Source: Escherichia phage teqsoen
Sequence record: MN895436.1
Strand: one strand, 5' to 3'
Length of the DNA stretch: 64,000 nucleotides
The notes beneath the pieces are model-generated. The model worked only from the letters and a program-made list of their open reading frames with translations, searched no databases and was not told the origin of the DNA. How positions within the stretch are numbered: the stretch's first letter is position 1; each line of letters starts with the position of its first letter. A program made the translations under genes and the position numbers. This document shows positions 1,738 through 57,128 of this stretch, piece by piece.

Positions 1738-2762
1738 ATCTTGGCATATTTAGATAGCCGCATTTTAGCCATCAACCCCTGGGCAATATTATTTTTCATA
1801 TATTCCATAATTTGTTCAGGGGTTGCACCTTCCTTTCTAATCATATCATTGACATCTTTTGATTTCCAGGGAGATTTATCCCAAAACATAACCCTTTCTC
1901 CTGCATCAACTAATTTAGTCATTCGTTTGATAGTGTCAGGGTGACGAGGTTCATTATCTAAAACCCACACTCGTCTATCTTTAAATGGAACAACTTCTAG
2001 GTCTAATTGACCACCCGTAATAGCTATACCATTTTCAATAAAAAGTGAATCTATAGGTCCTTCTAGAACATATACATCACCATCTTTAACTCGTTCGACT
2101 CCATATATTTTTGTTGCCTCAGGATAAGCTTTAATGGTGATATACTTTTGTGGAGCATCTTTCTTTAATGCGCGTCCTTGAAAAGACTCAGCCTTTCCGT
2201 TAGCATTATAAATTGGAATAACAAGACGAGGCTCAGGTATTTCCTTTTTATATGTTCCCGGTACTATGCTATTAACTAATTTAGGCCATTCGGTTGTAAA
2301 CCAAAGATATTTCCATTTATCCTTTGGAATACAACGAGCTTTTACATATTTTATAATTGGATGGTCTTCCACCAGTTTATCTAATCTAACACATGACGGA
2401 AGAGATTTAATTATTTTCTTCTCAGGATGTTTGGGAAGTTCTTTAGGTTTTTCTACTGGACGACTTTTACCTTTTTCTTTTCTTATTTCAAAGATATACT
2501 CACGATATAAATCAGGTTCAAACTCCTTTAAATATATTCCGATTGGTGCATGATAGTTACAGTTATAACAATGAATATTTCCTTCATTATTATCACCATA
2601 ATACCATCCACGAGCTTTATTCTGGTCGGTTTTTGAATCTCCGCAAACAGGGCATCTAAACCGTAATTTAAAAGTTGAACTATTATTTACTTGTGTGAAT
2701 TTAGGTAAATGAGCTAATGCACGATACGCAAACTCATTATCAATCCAAGGTACTGATGACAT
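1734..2762 (-). CDS. 61: DNA primase (gene 61)
   Basis: 342 aa; Zn-ribbon CPVCGDS...CYNC; N-terminus matches T4 gp61. Confidence 0.93.
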   Translation of the reverse strand: MSSVPWIDNEFAYRALAHLPKFTQVNNSSTFKLRFRCPVCGDSKTDQNKARGWYYGDNNEGNIHCYNCNYHAPIGIYLKEFEPDLYREYIFEIRKEKGKSRPVEKPKELPKHPEKKIIKSLPSCVRLDKLVEDHPIIKYVKARCIPKDKWKYLWFTTEWPKLVNSIVPGTYKKEIPEPRLVIPIYNANGKAESFQGRALKKDAPQKYITIKAYPEATKIYGVERVKDGDVYVLEGPIDSLFIENGIAITGGQLDLEVVPFKDRRVWVLDNEPRHPDTIKRMTKLVDAGERVMFWDKSPWKSKDVNDMIRKEGATPEQIMEYMKNNIAQGLMAKMRLSKYAKI

Positions 2763-2928
2763 TTTTACTCTTCTTTTTCTTTAGATTCCTCTTTTTCTTT
2801 TTAGGAATCTGTTCAGGACCTTTATTTACTACAGCGCCCGACGTTGTTCCAGTAGAGATATTTTCAGGATTACCACCTGAATCTCCAGCTACCATATCTT
2901 CTTTAATAAATTCTTTATATGTTTTCAT
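2740..2928 (-). CDS. small basic protein with capsid-targeting-like N-terminus
   Basis: 62 aa; MKTYKEFIKE then Gly/Thr-rich segment and Lys-rich tail; ATG 4 nt after upstream stop. Confidence 0.5.
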   Translation of the reverse strand: MKTYKEFIKEDMVAGDSGGNPENISTGTTSGAVVNKGPEQIPKKKKRNLKKKKSKNVISTLD

Positions 2929-47209: not shown

Positions 47210-47683
47210 TTATTTGAACGATTTAACGTACTGAATAGAACCTTTACTATTTACAAAGGCAATTTTACCATTTTTATTATACATGGTAGCAGTACGTTGA
47301 TAACCATAAGTTTGTTTACCAGATTGATAACCAACTAATGCGAAATTATCTTCGCCCATTTTATTCTGTTTAGCGCGAATGCGTTCATGACCATGTGCCA
47401 TAAGAACCTTAGCATCACCGGTTGCAATGGATCGACGAGTTTTTTCATCTTCAACTGTATTAACAAAGTCGTCAAATGAATCAAATTTAGCATGAGATTT
47501 ATTATACAGTTTTCCATCTACTGCATAATTATATCCCTGTACATCCATCTCAACTTCTGTACCATCATCCAATACAGCAGTGATTTTTTGACCTTTTTTA
47601 AATTTCAAAAGATCAGTAAAAGATTCAGCAATAATTTGAGAATTAATAGCTGCTTCAGTGATAAATTCTTGATATGTTTTCAT
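47210..47683 (-). CDS. internal protein with capsid targeting sequence
   Basis: 157 aa; N-terminus MKTYQEFITEA. Confidence 0.7.
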   Translation of the reverse strand: MKTYQEFITEAAINSQIIAESFTDLLKFKKGQKITAVLDDGTEVEMDVQGYNYAVDGKLYNKSHAKFDSFDDFVNTVEDEKTRRSIATGDAKVLMAHGHERIRAKQNKMGEDNFALVGYQSGKQTYGYQRTATMYNKNGKIAFVNSKGSIQYVKSFK

Positions 47684-47699
47684 ATGATTCCTTTAATTT

Positions 47700-48017
47700 T
47701 TATTCTTTAGGAAAATTTTTAGAATATGCGTCGTAAAGCTTATTTCCAATACGACGAAAAACTCTAGCTGCAAAACGATTTTCTGGGTTTTTAATCATAA
47801 TTTGCATCATATAAGTACCCGCGTCTGAAAGAGCTTCTTCATAGTACCCGTTAATTTCTTTAAGAGTCCTACGTTTACCACCAGGACCATCAACAGTGAT
47901 TTTCCATTTACCTGTAGAAGTGCGACTCGGCGGCTCAACTTGTTCAATCCAAATATAACCGCCTTCTACACGTTGTCCTGCAGCAGATTCTGCAATAAAT
48001 TCTTGATATGTTTTCAT
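47700..48017 (-). CDS. internal protein with capsid targeting sequence
   Basis: 105 aa; N-terminus MKTYQEFIAES. Confidence 0.7.
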   Translation of the reverse strand: MKTYQEFIAESAAGQRVEGGYIWIEQVEPPSRTSTGKWKITVDGPGGKRRTLKEINGYYEEALSDAGTYMMQIMIKNPENRFAARVFRRIGNKLYDAYSKNFPKE

Positions 48018-52571: not shown

Positions 52572-52847
52572 TTATTTCATATTATTGAAATATTCTTCTG
52601 CGATTTCGTCGTTATCATGGTAAACTTTAGAAGACAGTTTAACATAACCTTCAGCAGTGAACATGTTAATCACAACCTTTACAGTATACCACTGACCATC
52701 TTCATTACCCATTACTGCGTAAGTTTCAAACATCGGATGGTCAGGACCGATAACTTTAATATCATTCACTGTACGACCGAAATCTTCTGAAACACATTTC
52801 ATAAAGAAGTTGAACAGTTCGCCGTAATTATCCATTTTATTCTCCAA
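52572..52847 (-). CDS. hypothetical protein
   Basis: 91-aa ORF directly downstream of promoter cassette. Confidence 0.5.
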   Translation of the reverse strand: MENKMDNYGELFNFFMKCVSEDFGRTVNDIKVIGPDHPMFETYAVMGNEDGQWYTVKVVINMFTAEGYVKLSSKVYHDNDEIAEEYFNNMK

Positions 52848-52908: not shown

Positions 52909-53041
52909 AGTTTTGTGAAAAAATTTTTTAAAAAGTTTTGGGGAATTCTGGGGCAGGGAGGGGCAATTAAAGGATAGGATAATATATTATAACGGGTAGA
53001 AACTAAATGATGTCTGGAGAGGCCCAGAAAGGCCTAGATGC

Positions 53042-53069
53042 CAAAAAGCCCCAATCTTTCGGTCGGGGC
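53042..53069 (-). terminator. hairpin terminator
   Basis: GCCCCGACC-GAAA-GAUUGGGGC followed by T-run on minus strand. Confidence 0.7.
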
Positions 53070-53077
53070 TAAGAATG

Positions 53078-53551
53078 TTATTTGATTTGTTTAGCAGACC
53101 AAATGCGGTCTTTGATAATTTTTTGGATGTCTTCAACATACTCAAGAGAGTGAACATGTGGATTATCTTTGAAACTATGAGCTCGCGCAAGTTTCTGGCC
53201 TTCAGTTTTGATTACTAAAAGCTCTTTAAGGATAGCTTCATATTTGGAGATAATTCCTTTAACAATATTTTTCTCTTGTGCGACTTTAGGATCTGCTTTA
53301 GGAGCAGGTTTACCCGAAGCCTTTGCAAAAGCAGCGCCAGTAGCAACTAAACTTTTCCAGGCCATACTAACTGCATTTCCCGTAAATCCTTCCGCTTTCA
53401 TGTCGCGTGCGAACTGGAATCGCGATTCATCAGAAGCATCTTTATAGGAATATTTACCCGCTGCAATGGCTGCTTTTGCGACAGCTTGAATTTCGGTGCT
53501 AGATGCTTCATTTAACACCGCTTCATTTAAAAATTGAGTATATGATTTCAT
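53078..53551 (-). CDS. protein with capsid-targeting-like N-terminus
   Basis: 157 aa; N-terminus MKSYTQFLNEA; Ala/Lys-rich; TATAAATA upstream. Confidence 0.65.
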   Translation of the reverse strand: MKSYTQFLNEAVLNEASSTEIQAVAKAAIAAGKYSYKDASDESRFQFARDMKAEGFTGNAVSMAWKSLVATGAAFAKASGKPAPKADPKVAQEKNIVKGIISKYEAILKELLVIKTEGQKLARAHSFKDNPHVHSLEYVEDIQKIIKDRIWSAKQIK

Positions 53552-53591: not shown

Positions 53592-53599
53592 TATTTATA
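53592..53599 (-). promoter_or_regulatory. late promoter motif
   Basis: TATAAATA on minus strand about 40 nt upstream of ATG 53551. Confidence 0.55.
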
Positions 53600-53600
53600 C

Positions 53601-53628
53601 CAAAAAGCCCCAACCTTTCGGTCGGGGC
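53601..53628 (-). terminator. hairpin terminator downstream of tRNA/stable-RNA cluster
   Basis: GCCCCGACC-GAAA-GGUUGGGGC (9-bp stem) followed by T-run on minus strand. Confidence 0.75.
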
Positions 53629-53669
53629 TAAGCCTTGCGGCAACCTTGTCGGGGTTCCACCTGCTAAGG

Positions 53670-53943
53670 CAAGTGTTTGTACGAAACGCCGGGATTCGAA
53701 CCCGGTTATTAAGCAGTTGACGCTACTCAATATTTTTAAAAGGCCATATCTCGACCATATCCGAACGTTCCGTCAAAAACGCTACTCGGCTTACGGCAAA
53801 GATATTTCCTCGAATCGATAATTCGGTGCGCCGTTTCTGCTGTGATGTAAGAGGGCATCAATAAACGCAAGGATTATTAACGCAATTCCTTACTCAGGGA
53901 ACATCAGTCCGACGACTTGCCGGTAGCGACCCGGCTTCTTGTC
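53670..53943 (-). ncRNA. candidate structured stable RNA(s) with tRNA-like 3' domain
   Basis: T-arm-like CCGGG-TTCGAAT-CCCGG and 8-bp acceptor-like stem but no canonical cloverleaf or CCA; no ORF. Confidence 0.35.
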
Positions 53944-54019
53944 TGGTCGAGGCAGTAGGGATCGAACCTACGACCCAGGACTTAGAAGGTCCTTGCTCTT
54001 CCTTCTGAGCTATGCCTCG
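53944..54019 (-). tRNA. tRNA-Arg: tRNA-Arg (anticodon UCU)
   Basis: hand-folded cloverleaf, 76 nt, acceptor CGAGGCA/TGCCTCG, CCA encoded. Confidence 0.85.
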
Positions 54020-54023
54020 TATT

Positions 54024-54098
54024 TGGCGGACGTGATAGGATTCGAACCTATAACCAATCGCTTAACAGGCGATCGCTCTGCCATTGAGCTACACATCC
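54024..54098 (-). tRNA. tRNA-Asn: tRNA-Asn (anticodon GUU)
   Basis: hand-folded cloverleaf, 75 nt, anticodon loop CUGUUAA, T-loop TTCGAAT, CCA encoded. Confidence 0.75.
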
Positions 54099-54102
54099 AA
54101 AT

Positions 54103-54189
54103 TGGTGGGGAGTGGTGGAGTCGAACCACCCGAGTCGCAATGACAATGAATTTACAGTCCACACCGCTACCTCTACGGGATAACTCCCC
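54103..54189 (-). tRNA. tRNA-Tyr: tRNA-Tyr-like (anticodon GUA), class II
   Basis: 87 nt; perfect acceptor GGGGAGT/ACTCCCC, T-arm, variable-arm hairpin, loop CUGUAAA, CCA encoded; D-arm pairing imperfect. Confidence 0.6.
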
Positions 54190-54201
54190 TAATTCATAAT
54201 T

Positions 54202-54276
54202 TGGTGGCCCTGGGTGGAATTGAACCACCATCTGGCGATTATGAGTCGCTTGCTTGAACCTTCCAGCTACAGGGCC
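54202..54276 (-). tRNA. tRNA-Ile: tRNA-Ile (anticodon CAU, Ile by analogy with T4; could be Met)
   Basis: 75 nt cloverleaf, acceptor GGCCCTG/CAGGGCC, CCA encoded. Confidence 0.75.
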
Positions 54277-54277
54277 T

Positions 54278-54353
54278 TGGTGCTGATTGACGGAATCGAA
54301 CCGCCGACGTCCTCATTACAAGTGAGGTGCTCTACCTACTGAGCTAAATCAGC
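54278..54353 (-). tRNA. tRNA-Thr: tRNA-Thr (anticodon UGU)
   Basis: 76 nt cloverleaf, acceptor GCTGATT/AATCAGC, CCA encoded. Confidence 0.9.
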
Positions 54354-54359
54354 AAAAAC

Positions 54360-54449
54360 TGGCGGAGGCGATAGGATTTGAACCTATGAGTCGCCGGAGC
54401 GACTGCCGGTTTTCAAGACCGGTGCATTAAACCACTCTGCCACGCCTCC
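54360..54449 (-). tRNA. tRNA-Ser: tRNA-Ser (anticodon UGA), class II
   Basis: 90 nt with long variable arm, acceptor GGAGGCG/CGCCTCC, CCA encoded. Confidence 0.9.
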
Positions 54450-54451
54450 AG

Positions 54452-54525
54452 TCTCCATACAAGGATTTGAACCTTGGACCTCCTGATCCCAAATCAGGCG
54501 CTCTACCAAACTGAGCTACACGGAG
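54452..54525 (-). tRNA. tRNA-Pro: tRNA-Pro (anticodon UGG)
   Basis: 74 nt cloverleaf, loop UUUGGGA; acceptor stem has two G-U pairs; CCA not encoded. Confidence 0.75.
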
Positions 54526-54535
54526 TAAATTAAAT

Positions 54536-54609
<74 letters not shown>

Positions 54610-54614
54610 AAATT

Positions 54615-54701
54615 TGGTGCGAGAAGTGGGACTCGAACCCACAAGGAAATCATTCCGCAGCATTTTAAGTGCTGTGCCTTTACCAATTTGACCATTCTCG
54701 C
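54615..54701 (-). tRNA. tRNA-Leu: tRNA-Leu (anticodon UAA), class II
   Basis: 87 nt with long variable arm, acceptor GCGAGAA/TTCTCGC, CCA encoded. Confidence 0.9.
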
Positions 54702-54702
54702 G

Positions 54703-54775
54703 CTGGGAATAAAGGACTCGAACCTTTGCATCCTGGAATCAAAATCCAGTGCCTTACCAACTTGGCTAATTCCCA
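54703..54775 (-). tRNA. tRNA-Gln: tRNA-Gln (anticodon UUG)
   Basis: 73 nt; D-arm GCCAAGUUGGUAAGGCA as in bacterial tRNA-Gln; CCA not encoded. Confidence 0.85.
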
Positions 54776-55791: not shown

Positions 55792-56025
55792 TTATTTTTT
55801 ACGAAAAATTGATTTATTTTCTGCTGCCCATTTTTCAATAACTGCAGCAGGACCAGTAACAACAATTTTATCACCGTAATCTTCTGCGGCGAGTTGACCG
55901 AAATTATCTAATGCATCACGAAGAACTCCATGAGGCATTTCACCCATTTTATCTTTCTTGCCGGTGTAAATAAACTCAACTTTTACATCAGAAGATTCAG
56001 CGATAAACTCTTTGAAAGTTTTCAT
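55792..56025 (-). CDS. protein with capsid-targeting-like N-terminus
   Basis: 77 aa from internal ATG: MKTFKEFIAES...; track ORF starts further upstream. Confidence 0.6.
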   Translation of the reverse strand: MKTFKEFIAESSDVKVEFIYTGKKDKMGEMPHGVLRDALDNFGQLAAEDYGDKIVVTGPAAVIEKWAAENKSIFRKK

Positions 56026-56059
56026 TTTGATTTCCATTTGGTTTTGTTTTGATAGAGTA

Positions 56060-56089
56060 ATAGTATCACTACTAAAACCCTGTGTAAAC
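56060..56089 (-). promoter_or_regulatory. early promoter
   Basis: GTTTAC, 18 nt, TACTAT. Confidence 0.65.
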
Positions 56090-56101
56090 AACTTTGTGAA
56101 A

Positions 56102-56359
56102 TTATTTTAAATCTTCTAATCGTTTCTTCATCTTAGAACCATTTTTAGCAATTTCTCCTGCATCTGAGCATAATGCTAAAAGTGCTTTAACTTTAGTTTG
56201 GTCTCCTTTAAAAGATGAAGGATCGACTGCAGCAGCAAGTTCTTTAATACGAGAGAAAAGACGCTCAGCTTCAGCTAAAGCCATTCCAAGCTTTACTTCC
56301 ATACCGTGGGAAGATTCGGTGATAGTAGTTTTTGTAGCAAACTCTTTGAAAGTTTTCAT
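56102..56359 (-). CDS. protein with capsid-targeting-like N-terminus
   Basis: 85 aa; MKTFKEFATKTTITES; AGGAAAA RBS. Confidence 0.6.
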   Translation of the reverse strand: MKTFKEFATKTTITESSHGMEVKLGMALAEAERLFSRIKELAAAVDPSSFKGDQTKVKALLALCSDAGEIAKNGSKMKKRLEDLK

Positions 56360-56389
56360 TTTATTTTCCTAATTAATTTTGATGAGATA

Positions 56390-56419
56390 ATAGTATCACT
56401 ACCTCATCAGCGTGTAAAC
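56390..56419 (-). promoter_or_regulatory. early promoter with -10 inside an inverted repeat
   Basis: GTTTAC, 18 nt, TACTAT; flanked by GATGAG/CTCATC; upstream element identical to the 56091-56113 copy. Confidence 0.65.
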
Positions 56420-56431
56420 AACTTTGTGAAA

Positions 56432-57128
<697 letters not shown>

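Follow-up and report, generated by a model that had tools for sequence, protein, structure and literature searches.

Internal head proteins of T4-type phages are small and basic in their mature form, and they are made with a 10-residue propeptide in which an aromatic residue at position 4, Phe at position 7 and an (L/I)-x-E motif at positions 8-10 precede a small residue. According to work of the Black laboratory, IPIII requires no more than its first 10 residues to be incorporated (reviewed in PMC9026906). Within this capsid targeting sequence (CTS), residues 4 and 7, in IPIII Tyr4 and Phe7, mainly drive targeting and residues 8 and 10 processing, and foreign proteins enter T4 heads when fused to the first 10 residues of IPIII (PMC9026906). 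IPI* inhibits the GmrSD restriction system, and IPIII is needed on ECOR17 (PMC9391042). In T-even phages, alternative genes of this class (ipI/Ip5/Ip6/Ip7) with a conserved propeptide at their 5' ends occupy the hypervariable ipI locus between trna.4 and 57B. A second system of relevance is given by the promoter-early stem-loop (PeSL) cassettes of T4-type phages (Arbiol et al. 2010, PMC2839356; Comeau et al. 2014, PMC4122927). Here, composite terminator/promoter repeats flank small accessory ORFs in hyperplastic regions, and relatives precisely gain or lose an ORF plus one repeat, as by repeat recombination.

The locus described here is part of a 64,000-nt stretch of Escherichia phage teqsoen (MN895436.1), a T4-like Tequatrovirus; this whole stretch is referred to as the window. 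Between the terminator following rnaC and the e.8 gene it carries a minus-strand ORF of 157 codons (Table 1). The best explanation of this ORF, which we regard as probably correct, is that its product is the precursor of a further internal head protein, made late, packaged by means of its CTS, cleaved and injected. Among the CTS-bearing internal proteins, a known class, it is best regarded as a new and almost unannotated member, situated at a second polymorphic IP locus. Similar to the T4-type internal head proteins, it shows the propeptide pattern given above and a small and basic predicted mature part, its gene is read from the counter-clockwise strand in the neighbourhood of the tRNA/e/57 region, its presence varies among close relatives, and an ortholog was detected in virion preparations, albeit impure ones. 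It differs from them in that similarity to the named IPs is restricted to the propeptide, and in its assignment to a separate PHROG family.

Table 1. Location of the 157-aa gene, its control elements and neighbouring features (window coordinates, unless a relative is named).
Feature	Coordinates	Strand	Basis or remark
CDS, 157 aa, putative internal head protein precursor	53078..53551	(-)	phrog_2280; dN/dS; identity to Lutter F10A_0139
CTS-like propeptide MKSYTQFLNE with L-x-E cleavage motif, codons 1-10	53522..53551	(-)	IPIII critical-residue rules (PMC9026906)
15-nt tandem duplication, TTAAATGAAGC at 53530-53520 and 53515-53505	53505..53530	(-)	second LNE-A site (E15)
Shine-Dalgarno AGGAA	53557..53561	(-)	direct sequence reading; ATG 5 nt further on
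TATAAATA, T4-type late promoter octamer	53592..53599	(-)	40 nt before ATG; abuts terminator T-run; conserved in relatives
Upstream repeat copy, 36 nt; intrinsic terminator following rnaC	53597..53632	(-)	identical hairpin after rnaC in T4
Downstream repeat copy, 36 nt; terminator of cassette	53038..53073	(-)	repeat comparison and folding
Early-type promoter TTTACA-17-TACTAT	52907-52879	(-)	after downstream hairpin; serves e.8
e.8 homolog, next transcription unit downstream	52572-52835, ATG at 52835	(-)	T4 comparison
rnaC homolog	about 53818-53680	(-)	comparison with T4 sequence and annotation
rnaD homolog	about 53943-53825	(-)	comparison with T4; rnaD and rnaC span 53680..53943, adjoin tRNA-Arg downstream
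tRNA cluster, ten genes	53944-54775	(-)	
IpV-like gene	56359-56102	(-)	ipI-locus equivalent
IpVI-like gene	56025-55792	(-)	ipI-locus equivalent; CTS starts at ATG 56025
Second slot gene Shfl2p135	L008 665-1231 (Shigella phage Shfl2)	(-)	also L009 2100-2663

Composition (25 Ala, 21 Lys) and coordinates of the ORF agree with the Ala/Lys-rich 157-aa protein of the original prediction; the protein is basic (pI 9.48), and the other CTS proteins of the window are likewise small and basic. The AGGAA Shine-Dalgarno sequence is present in most of the homologous loci compared. A 1051-bp query around the locus matched 721 phage records, with Yersinia phage phiD1/fD1 as best match (97.6% identity over the full query) and 97.7% identity over 99% of the query in case of Escherichia phage Lutter. 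At the protein level, Lutter F10A_0139 is 100% identical, and g140 of fD1 is a 97% identical ortholog. A homology search had been proposed as a check together with the original prediction, and by tblastn homologs were found in 511 phage records, comprising Escherichia, Shigella, Yersinia, Salmonella, Citrobacter, and Klebsiella phages. The gene is genuine, and purifying selection acts on it: in pairwise comparison with alleles from Tequatrovirus and Mosigvirus, dN/dS amounts to 0.07-0.15 at a dS of 0.7-2.0.

The family is very narrow, since a profile searched against 1.84 billion representative proteins gave no more than 13 matches at E <= 0.001, of which the traceable ones belong to T4-like phages or short metagenomic contigs. 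The PHROGs family phrog_2280, listed there with unknown function, matches residues 1-157 (E 1.3e-60), and the sole Pfam match is a sub-threshold chance match (Shikimate_dh_N, E 0.12). In nearly all of the 500+ records the gene is labelled 'hypothetical protein'; the name 'Internal head protein' is given to one UniRef entry, a homolog from a Klebsiella phage, and to no other. RB32ORF131c/132c/133c are mentioned in no paper found by literature search. Due to its absence from T4, T2, T6, and PST, the gene has never been studied or named, and it is also missing from the PST genome of the Krisch laboratory with its curated Ip names.

The AlphaFold2 model of the protein is all-helical (pLDDT 75). 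Three helices form an N-terminal domain (residues about 18-71; pLDDT 88 if modelled alone), which a linker rich in Lys, Pro and Ala joins to a helical hairpin at the C-terminus. Conserved motifs of the N-terminal domain are GKYSY, SRFQFARDM, and AWKS; the C-terminal half varies more between subfamilies, ending in ...DRIWSAKQIK in one and in ...VGDVGRHYKKL in another. The best hit of a sequence-profile search against the PDB has an E-value of 2.2, Foldseek with the full model found none below E 0.7 in the PDB, and in BFVD it found members of the same family and a Serratia phage PS2 relative, nothing else. Similarity to the mature parts of known IPs was not found either, so that a function in the host is assigned purely by analogy.

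Virion proteomics, another check named in advance, is available for fD1, whose virions were purified by ultracentrifugation and analysed by LC-MS/MS (Skurnik et al. 2021, PMC8309999). In Table S3 of that study, the strict threshold assigns the mark 'PPAP' (particle-associated) to the ortholog g140 (67942-68415, 157 aa, 17.3 kDa, without T4 homolog), as it does to g129 and g146, which are annotated as head proteins, but not to the neighbour g139 (e.8) (PMC8309999). This preparation was not pure, since 113-137 phage proteins, among them the non-structural DenV, NudE, lysozyme e, dNMP kinase, and gp57A, were scored together with 672 proteins of the host (PMC8309999). Due to this impurity, detection of g140 in virions, as predicted, is supportive rather than decisive. 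[quoted passage not shown] That the ORF arose by chance between two terminators and is non-functional would fit the missing Pfam match and the prevailing 'hypothetical protein' label, but selection and proteomic data refute this reading, which we consider extremely improbable: dN/dS stays at 0.07-0.15 with dS up to 2, the homologs in 511 phage records of several genera are always located just downstream of the tRNA cluster, peptides were detected by mass spectrometry, and the N-terminal domain is modelled with confidence.

The N-terminus of the protein (MKSYTQFLNEAVLNEASS) was originally recognised as a variant of the CTS, and the comparison with IPIII bears this out. Its first ten residues, MKSYTQFLNE, contain all residues critical in IPIII, namely Y4, F7, L8, and E10. 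With MKTYQEFIAE, an IP propeptide of T4 that is also present in the window at 48017, M1, K2, Y4, and F7 are shared; both decapeptides have an aliphatic residue at position 8, and in both E10 is followed by Ala. The motif of the gp21 prohead protease, (L/I)-x-E plus a small residue, occurs as L8-N9-E10 before A11 and, due to the 15-nt tandem duplication, a second time as L13-N14-E15 before A16. From the intact N-terminus MKSYTQFLNEAVLNEASSTEIQAVAK, cleavage at the first site would leave AVLNEASSTEIQAVAK from A11 onward, and the two LNE-A motifs predict alternative mature N-termini, A11 and A16. Alleles of 153-154 aa are devoid of the duplication. An alignment of 13 family members has six invariant columns; one of them is the Glu at the boundary of the propeptide, and it aligns with E15 of the window protein, so that the mature N-terminus is probably A16.

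No other feature of the family persists as far as the decapeptide pattern, which still occurs in relatives at E about 1e-4. An aromatic residue at position 4 and Phe at position 7 were observed in most of the family members examined, and the majority of the distant relatives retain M-x-x-[FY]-x-x-F-[LV]-x-E (MLKFNEFLAE, MINFSDFLNE, MKSFSSFLNE, MLEYSEFLKE), with a mature part that falls to 28-42% identity. Exceptions are given by a 153-aa allele with MKTYAQFLMTE (Met at P3, Glu at position 11), by Klebsiella phage homologs with MKFKEFLAE, which is one residue shorter, and by P0019 with MISFNEFVDG, where the cleavage motif is solely found at I-T-E 13-15. Since the Klebsiella phage form is shorter and the propeptide of P0021 longer by one residue, the register of the motif is shifted in these proteins. 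Codons within the motif differ synonymously (TAT/TAC, TTA/TTG/CTA/CTG, GAA/GAG), which indicates that selection acts on the peptide.

This bears on a different reading of the N-terminus, namely that the protein is late and cytoplasmic and stays unpackaged, with the CTS-like end as a passenger kept as a region of recombination homology or translation initiation. In line with it, the stretch from Shine-Dalgarno sequence through ATG to CTS is 74% identical at DNA level over 42 nt (family D4) between the 157-aa gene and a second gene type found at the same position (Shfl2p135, see below), and in hhalign the 10 CTS residues of the two proteins align and nothing more, although PHROGs places both in phrog_2280; the low specificity of the fD1 proteome would suit it as well. 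We nevertheless judge it very unlikely, since synonymous changes leave the amino acids of the motif intact across genera, the boundary Glu does not vary, and g140 passed the strict proteomic threshold at which the neighbouring e.8 product failed. Moreover, fusions to 10 residues of IPIII are packaged (PMC9026906), and a late-made protein with a CTS is expected to be packaged whether 'intended' or not.

A loose CTS-like regular expression matched five times in the six frames of the window, in all cases at the start of a minus-strand ORF, and two of the four matches other than the 157-aa gene belong to PHROG families annotated as internal virion proteins. At 47210-48017 (-), an IpIV-like protein of 157 aa with a near-canonical CTS is assigned to phrog_3155 (internal virion protein), and next to it a 105-aa protein, also with a near-canonical CTS, to phrog_3966 (unknown function). 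Despite the equal length of the IpIV-like protein (47683-47210), paralogy with the protein studied here was rejected, because similarity is absent. A 62-aa ORF starting with MKTYKEFIKE (2740-2928 (-); phrog_1823, unknown function) is distant from the other IP genes.

For the gene an own late promoter had been claimed, and the octamer TATAAATA is indeed located in front of it, with a placement that is conserved in relatives. The Lutter record annotates this octamer as 'promoter'. Nine copies on the minus and two on the plus strand were counted in the window, compared to about 8 per strand expected for AT-rich DNA; hence the octamer is not rare, and placement and conservation carry the weight. 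The chance of finding it in the 48-nt intergenic gap right after the terminator was estimated at about 0.006. Between upstream hairpin and ATG no sigma-70-like promoter was found.

Conservation was assessed in 18 loci with a family-A member. In 10 of them a hairpin is followed directly by the exact TATAAATA, at 34-48 nt from the ATG; these include Tequatrovirus, Jiaodavirus with another hairpin sequence, and an IMG/VR contig with a Mosigvirus-type allele. Five further loci have a one-mismatch octamer, [ACG]ATAAATA, which is AATAAATA instead of TATAAATA in the Mosigvirus loci and CATAAATA or GATAAATA in two metagenomic contigs. The remaining three, all distant, are without an own promoter because the gene overlaps an upstream ORF; for Cronobacter phage VP8 and a metagenomic contig, two of the three, that upstream ORF is itself preceded by a hairpin and the exact TATAAATA. 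Taken together, a hairpin followed by (T/A/C/G)ATAAATA before the gene or its operon was observed in 17 of 18 loci, and the late octamer behind a terminator is shared by Tequatrovirus, Jiaodavirus, Muldoonvirus, and metagenomic loci. In Cronobacter phage vB_Cdu_VP8 (OQ361773) a putatively late operon with TATAAATA at -34 has the family member as its second gene; the first gene (L020 2286-2504) encodes 72 aa and starts with the CTS MKSFTEFLTE. The upstream ORF of Yersinia phage fHe-Yen9-01 (L017) resembles a paralog, with a common TPDLY motif and a Lys/Pro/Ala-rich linker.

The cassette was originally described as insulated by two near-identical hairpins with 9-bp stems and GAAA loops. Near-identity was observed, as the 36-nt direct repeats agree in 34 of 36 positions (94%) at a distance of 559 nt; the stem length is approximate. 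The upstream hairpin (53629-53606) has a stem of 10 bp including one G-U pair, a GAAA loop and a T5 run at 53605-53601, and the surrounding 51-nt segment folds at -21.6 kcal/mol (z -3.2). The downstream hairpin (53070-53047) is composed of 8 bp, a C/A mismatch and 1 bp, with T5 at 53046-53042, and its 51-nt segment folds at -16.3 kcal/mol (z -2.2). All 18 family-A loci terminate in a hairpin followed by T's. Insulation by terminators thus holds, with the refinement that the upstream hairpin also follows rnaC in T4 and the downstream one is its repeated copy, which accounts for the insertion/deletion behaviour of the cassette. From the octamer, the flanking hairpins and a gap without sigma-70-like promoter, a monocistronic, putatively late cassette between the tRNA/rnaC and e.8 units is deduced. 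A partial copy of the terminator is located at 53640-53670 (-), just upstream of the terminator (AACCCCGACAAGGTTG compared to AGCCCCGACCGAAAGGTTGGGGC), and the terminator of a Mosigvirus locus (L003) is apparently built straight from the first partial copy (CCCCGACAAGGTTGGGG). These sequences suggest that the terminator itself may have undergone a past duplication or deletion.

In T4, the gene is absent and a single hairpin is located between rnaC and e.8, the left flank of which corresponds to the flank of the upstream copy in the window and the right flank to that of the downstream copy. The slot is likewise empty in T2, T6, and PST. With the T4 junction as query, 60 of 728 matching records were sampled: about 7 junctions are empty and match in one contiguous piece, most others are interrupted by about 555-560 bp, corresponding to the 157-aa gene, a few by about 660-695 bp, and about 9 by larger inserts. 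The insert of about 690 bp is a different gene, Shfl2p135, which encodes 188 aa and starts with MKTYAEFLTEAAKLPSE. Genes of this type (187-188 aa, CTS MKTYAEFLTE) occur in 165 phage records, and Shfl2p135 also matches phrog_2280 (E 1.7e-53). At the Shfl2 locus (L008), which carries this gene only, AATAAATA does not adjoin the hairpin but is located about 46-50 nt ahead of the ATG; a hairpin and T's terminate this locus as well. Tandem arrangements of the 157-aa and 188-aa genes were observed in L009, L011, and L015 and, among others, in phages sb3 and PYps32T; in L009 three hairpins bound the two cassettes. The slot is therefore found in four states, namely empty, with the 157-aa gene, with the second CTS gene, or with both.

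A recent insertion into the phage studied here was rejected. Homologs in Mosigvirus, Jiaodavirus, Muldoonvirus, fHe-Yen9-01, and metagenomic contigs are all situated within about 1 kb downstream of tRNA genes, and the position, being common to several genera, is considered old. Recombination between the terminator repeats could delete or add cassettes, and the empty slot of T4, T2, and T6 probably reflects a loss by this route.

The variability of the slot also bears on the possibility that the protein is packaged via its CTS and is no effector, but serves head assembly or DNA condensation without a specific host target. Its basic character (pI 9.5) and the Lys/Pro/Ala-rich linker would be in agreement with such a role, as would the head-assembly aberrations of T4 IPIII mutants (PMC9026906). 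However, the gene is dispensable in nature, as seen from T4, T2, T6, and PST, and variation of the slot among very close relatives is more typical of adaptive host-range genes; in addition, the conserved motifs of the mature N-terminal domain suggest a specific interaction. A purely structural role is thus regarded as unlikely.

Considering the preferred reading of a packaged and injected internal protein, the following course is envisaged. Late in infection, its own TATAAATA promoter would drive monocistronic transcription of the gene up to the hairpin terminator. The decapeptide MKSYTQFLNE, acting as CTS, would direct the protein to the scaffolding core (gp22) of the prohead, and the gp21 prohead protease is predicted to cut after the Glu of L-N-E, at E10 and probably at E15. 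The released basic helical protein of about 15.5-16 kDa would remain in the DNA-filled head and be ejected with the DNA into the next host. There, in analogy to IPI* and IPIII, it might act before any phage gene expression, most likely against host defence.

Compared to the ipI locus, the 157-aa gene is located on the opposite side of the tRNA cluster. The original prediction had placed an internal protein gene of T4 on the other side of the tRNAs, and the T4 annotation confirms the upstream location of ipI; in the window, the 57A/57B genes and two internal-protein genes (IpV-like and IpVI-like) are found upstream of the tRNAs, too. Both loci are fixed slots with varied CTS genes (0, 1 or 2). 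The ipI locus is bounded by early-promoter repeats, whereas terminator and late promoter bound the slot between rnaC and e.8, and, unlike at the ipI locus, both alleles of this slot belong to the single family phrog_2280. The IpV-like and IpVI-like genes of the window follow early-type promoters, while the 157-aa gene has a putative late promoter only, and no exact TATAAATA was found before the former two. A repeated block, TTAAAATAATTTCACAAAGTTGTTTACAC, with an early-type promoter precedes both genes (55792-56440) and is PeSL-like. The listed ORF of the IpVI-like gene begins at an upstream TTG (99 aa), that is, ahead of the ATG at which its CTS begins. It is tentatively proposed, as a possibility of lower probability than the packaging of the protein, that the interval between rnaC terminator and e.8 represents an unrecognised second hypervariable IP locus of late, terminator-bounded cassettes, with injected anti-defence effectors against host immunity systems as products, and that the classical T-evens lost these cassettes and for this reason left them unstudied.

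With regard to PeSLs, the pattern of gain and loss and the flanking repeats are alike. PeSLs carry a sigma-70-type early promoter, whereas the 157-aa cassette carries the late octamer TATAAATA and its repeated part is the G+C-rich terminator itself; on the coding strand, no sigma-70-like site was found beside either hairpin. The cassette is therefore a late-gene analogue of PeSLs and not a PeSL by definition, and it carries the idea of modular shuffling over to late genes. As a swappable late cassette absent from T4, T2, and T6, it extends a known theme and does not constitute a new kind of system.

Internal proteins enter the host ahead of phage gene expression, and those T4 examples with examined roles bear on host range. 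The 157-aa family occurs in >500 sequenced T4-like phages, many of them candidates for therapy or biocontrol. As a probably injected protein, it represents a concrete candidate for a host-range or anti-defence factor that is absent from the model phages T4, T2, and T6. This candidate is testable with existing phages (Lutter, fD1, RB32/RB51) and with the public fD1 virion proteomic dataset PXD026812.

Further observations concern the tRNA region upstream of the slot. Rfam holds no families for rnaC and rnaD, and in this region it yields tRNAs only. The tRNA cluster of the window includes Asn and Tyr, which are missing from T4, and is without segB or another endonuclease gene. An extra ORF of 116 aa between rnaD and tRNA-Arg is present in Lutter and T2 (L001 5038-5382; L007 5013-5363), but not in the window, and it is at this rnaD/tRNA-Arg junction that the window departs from Lutter, its closest relative.
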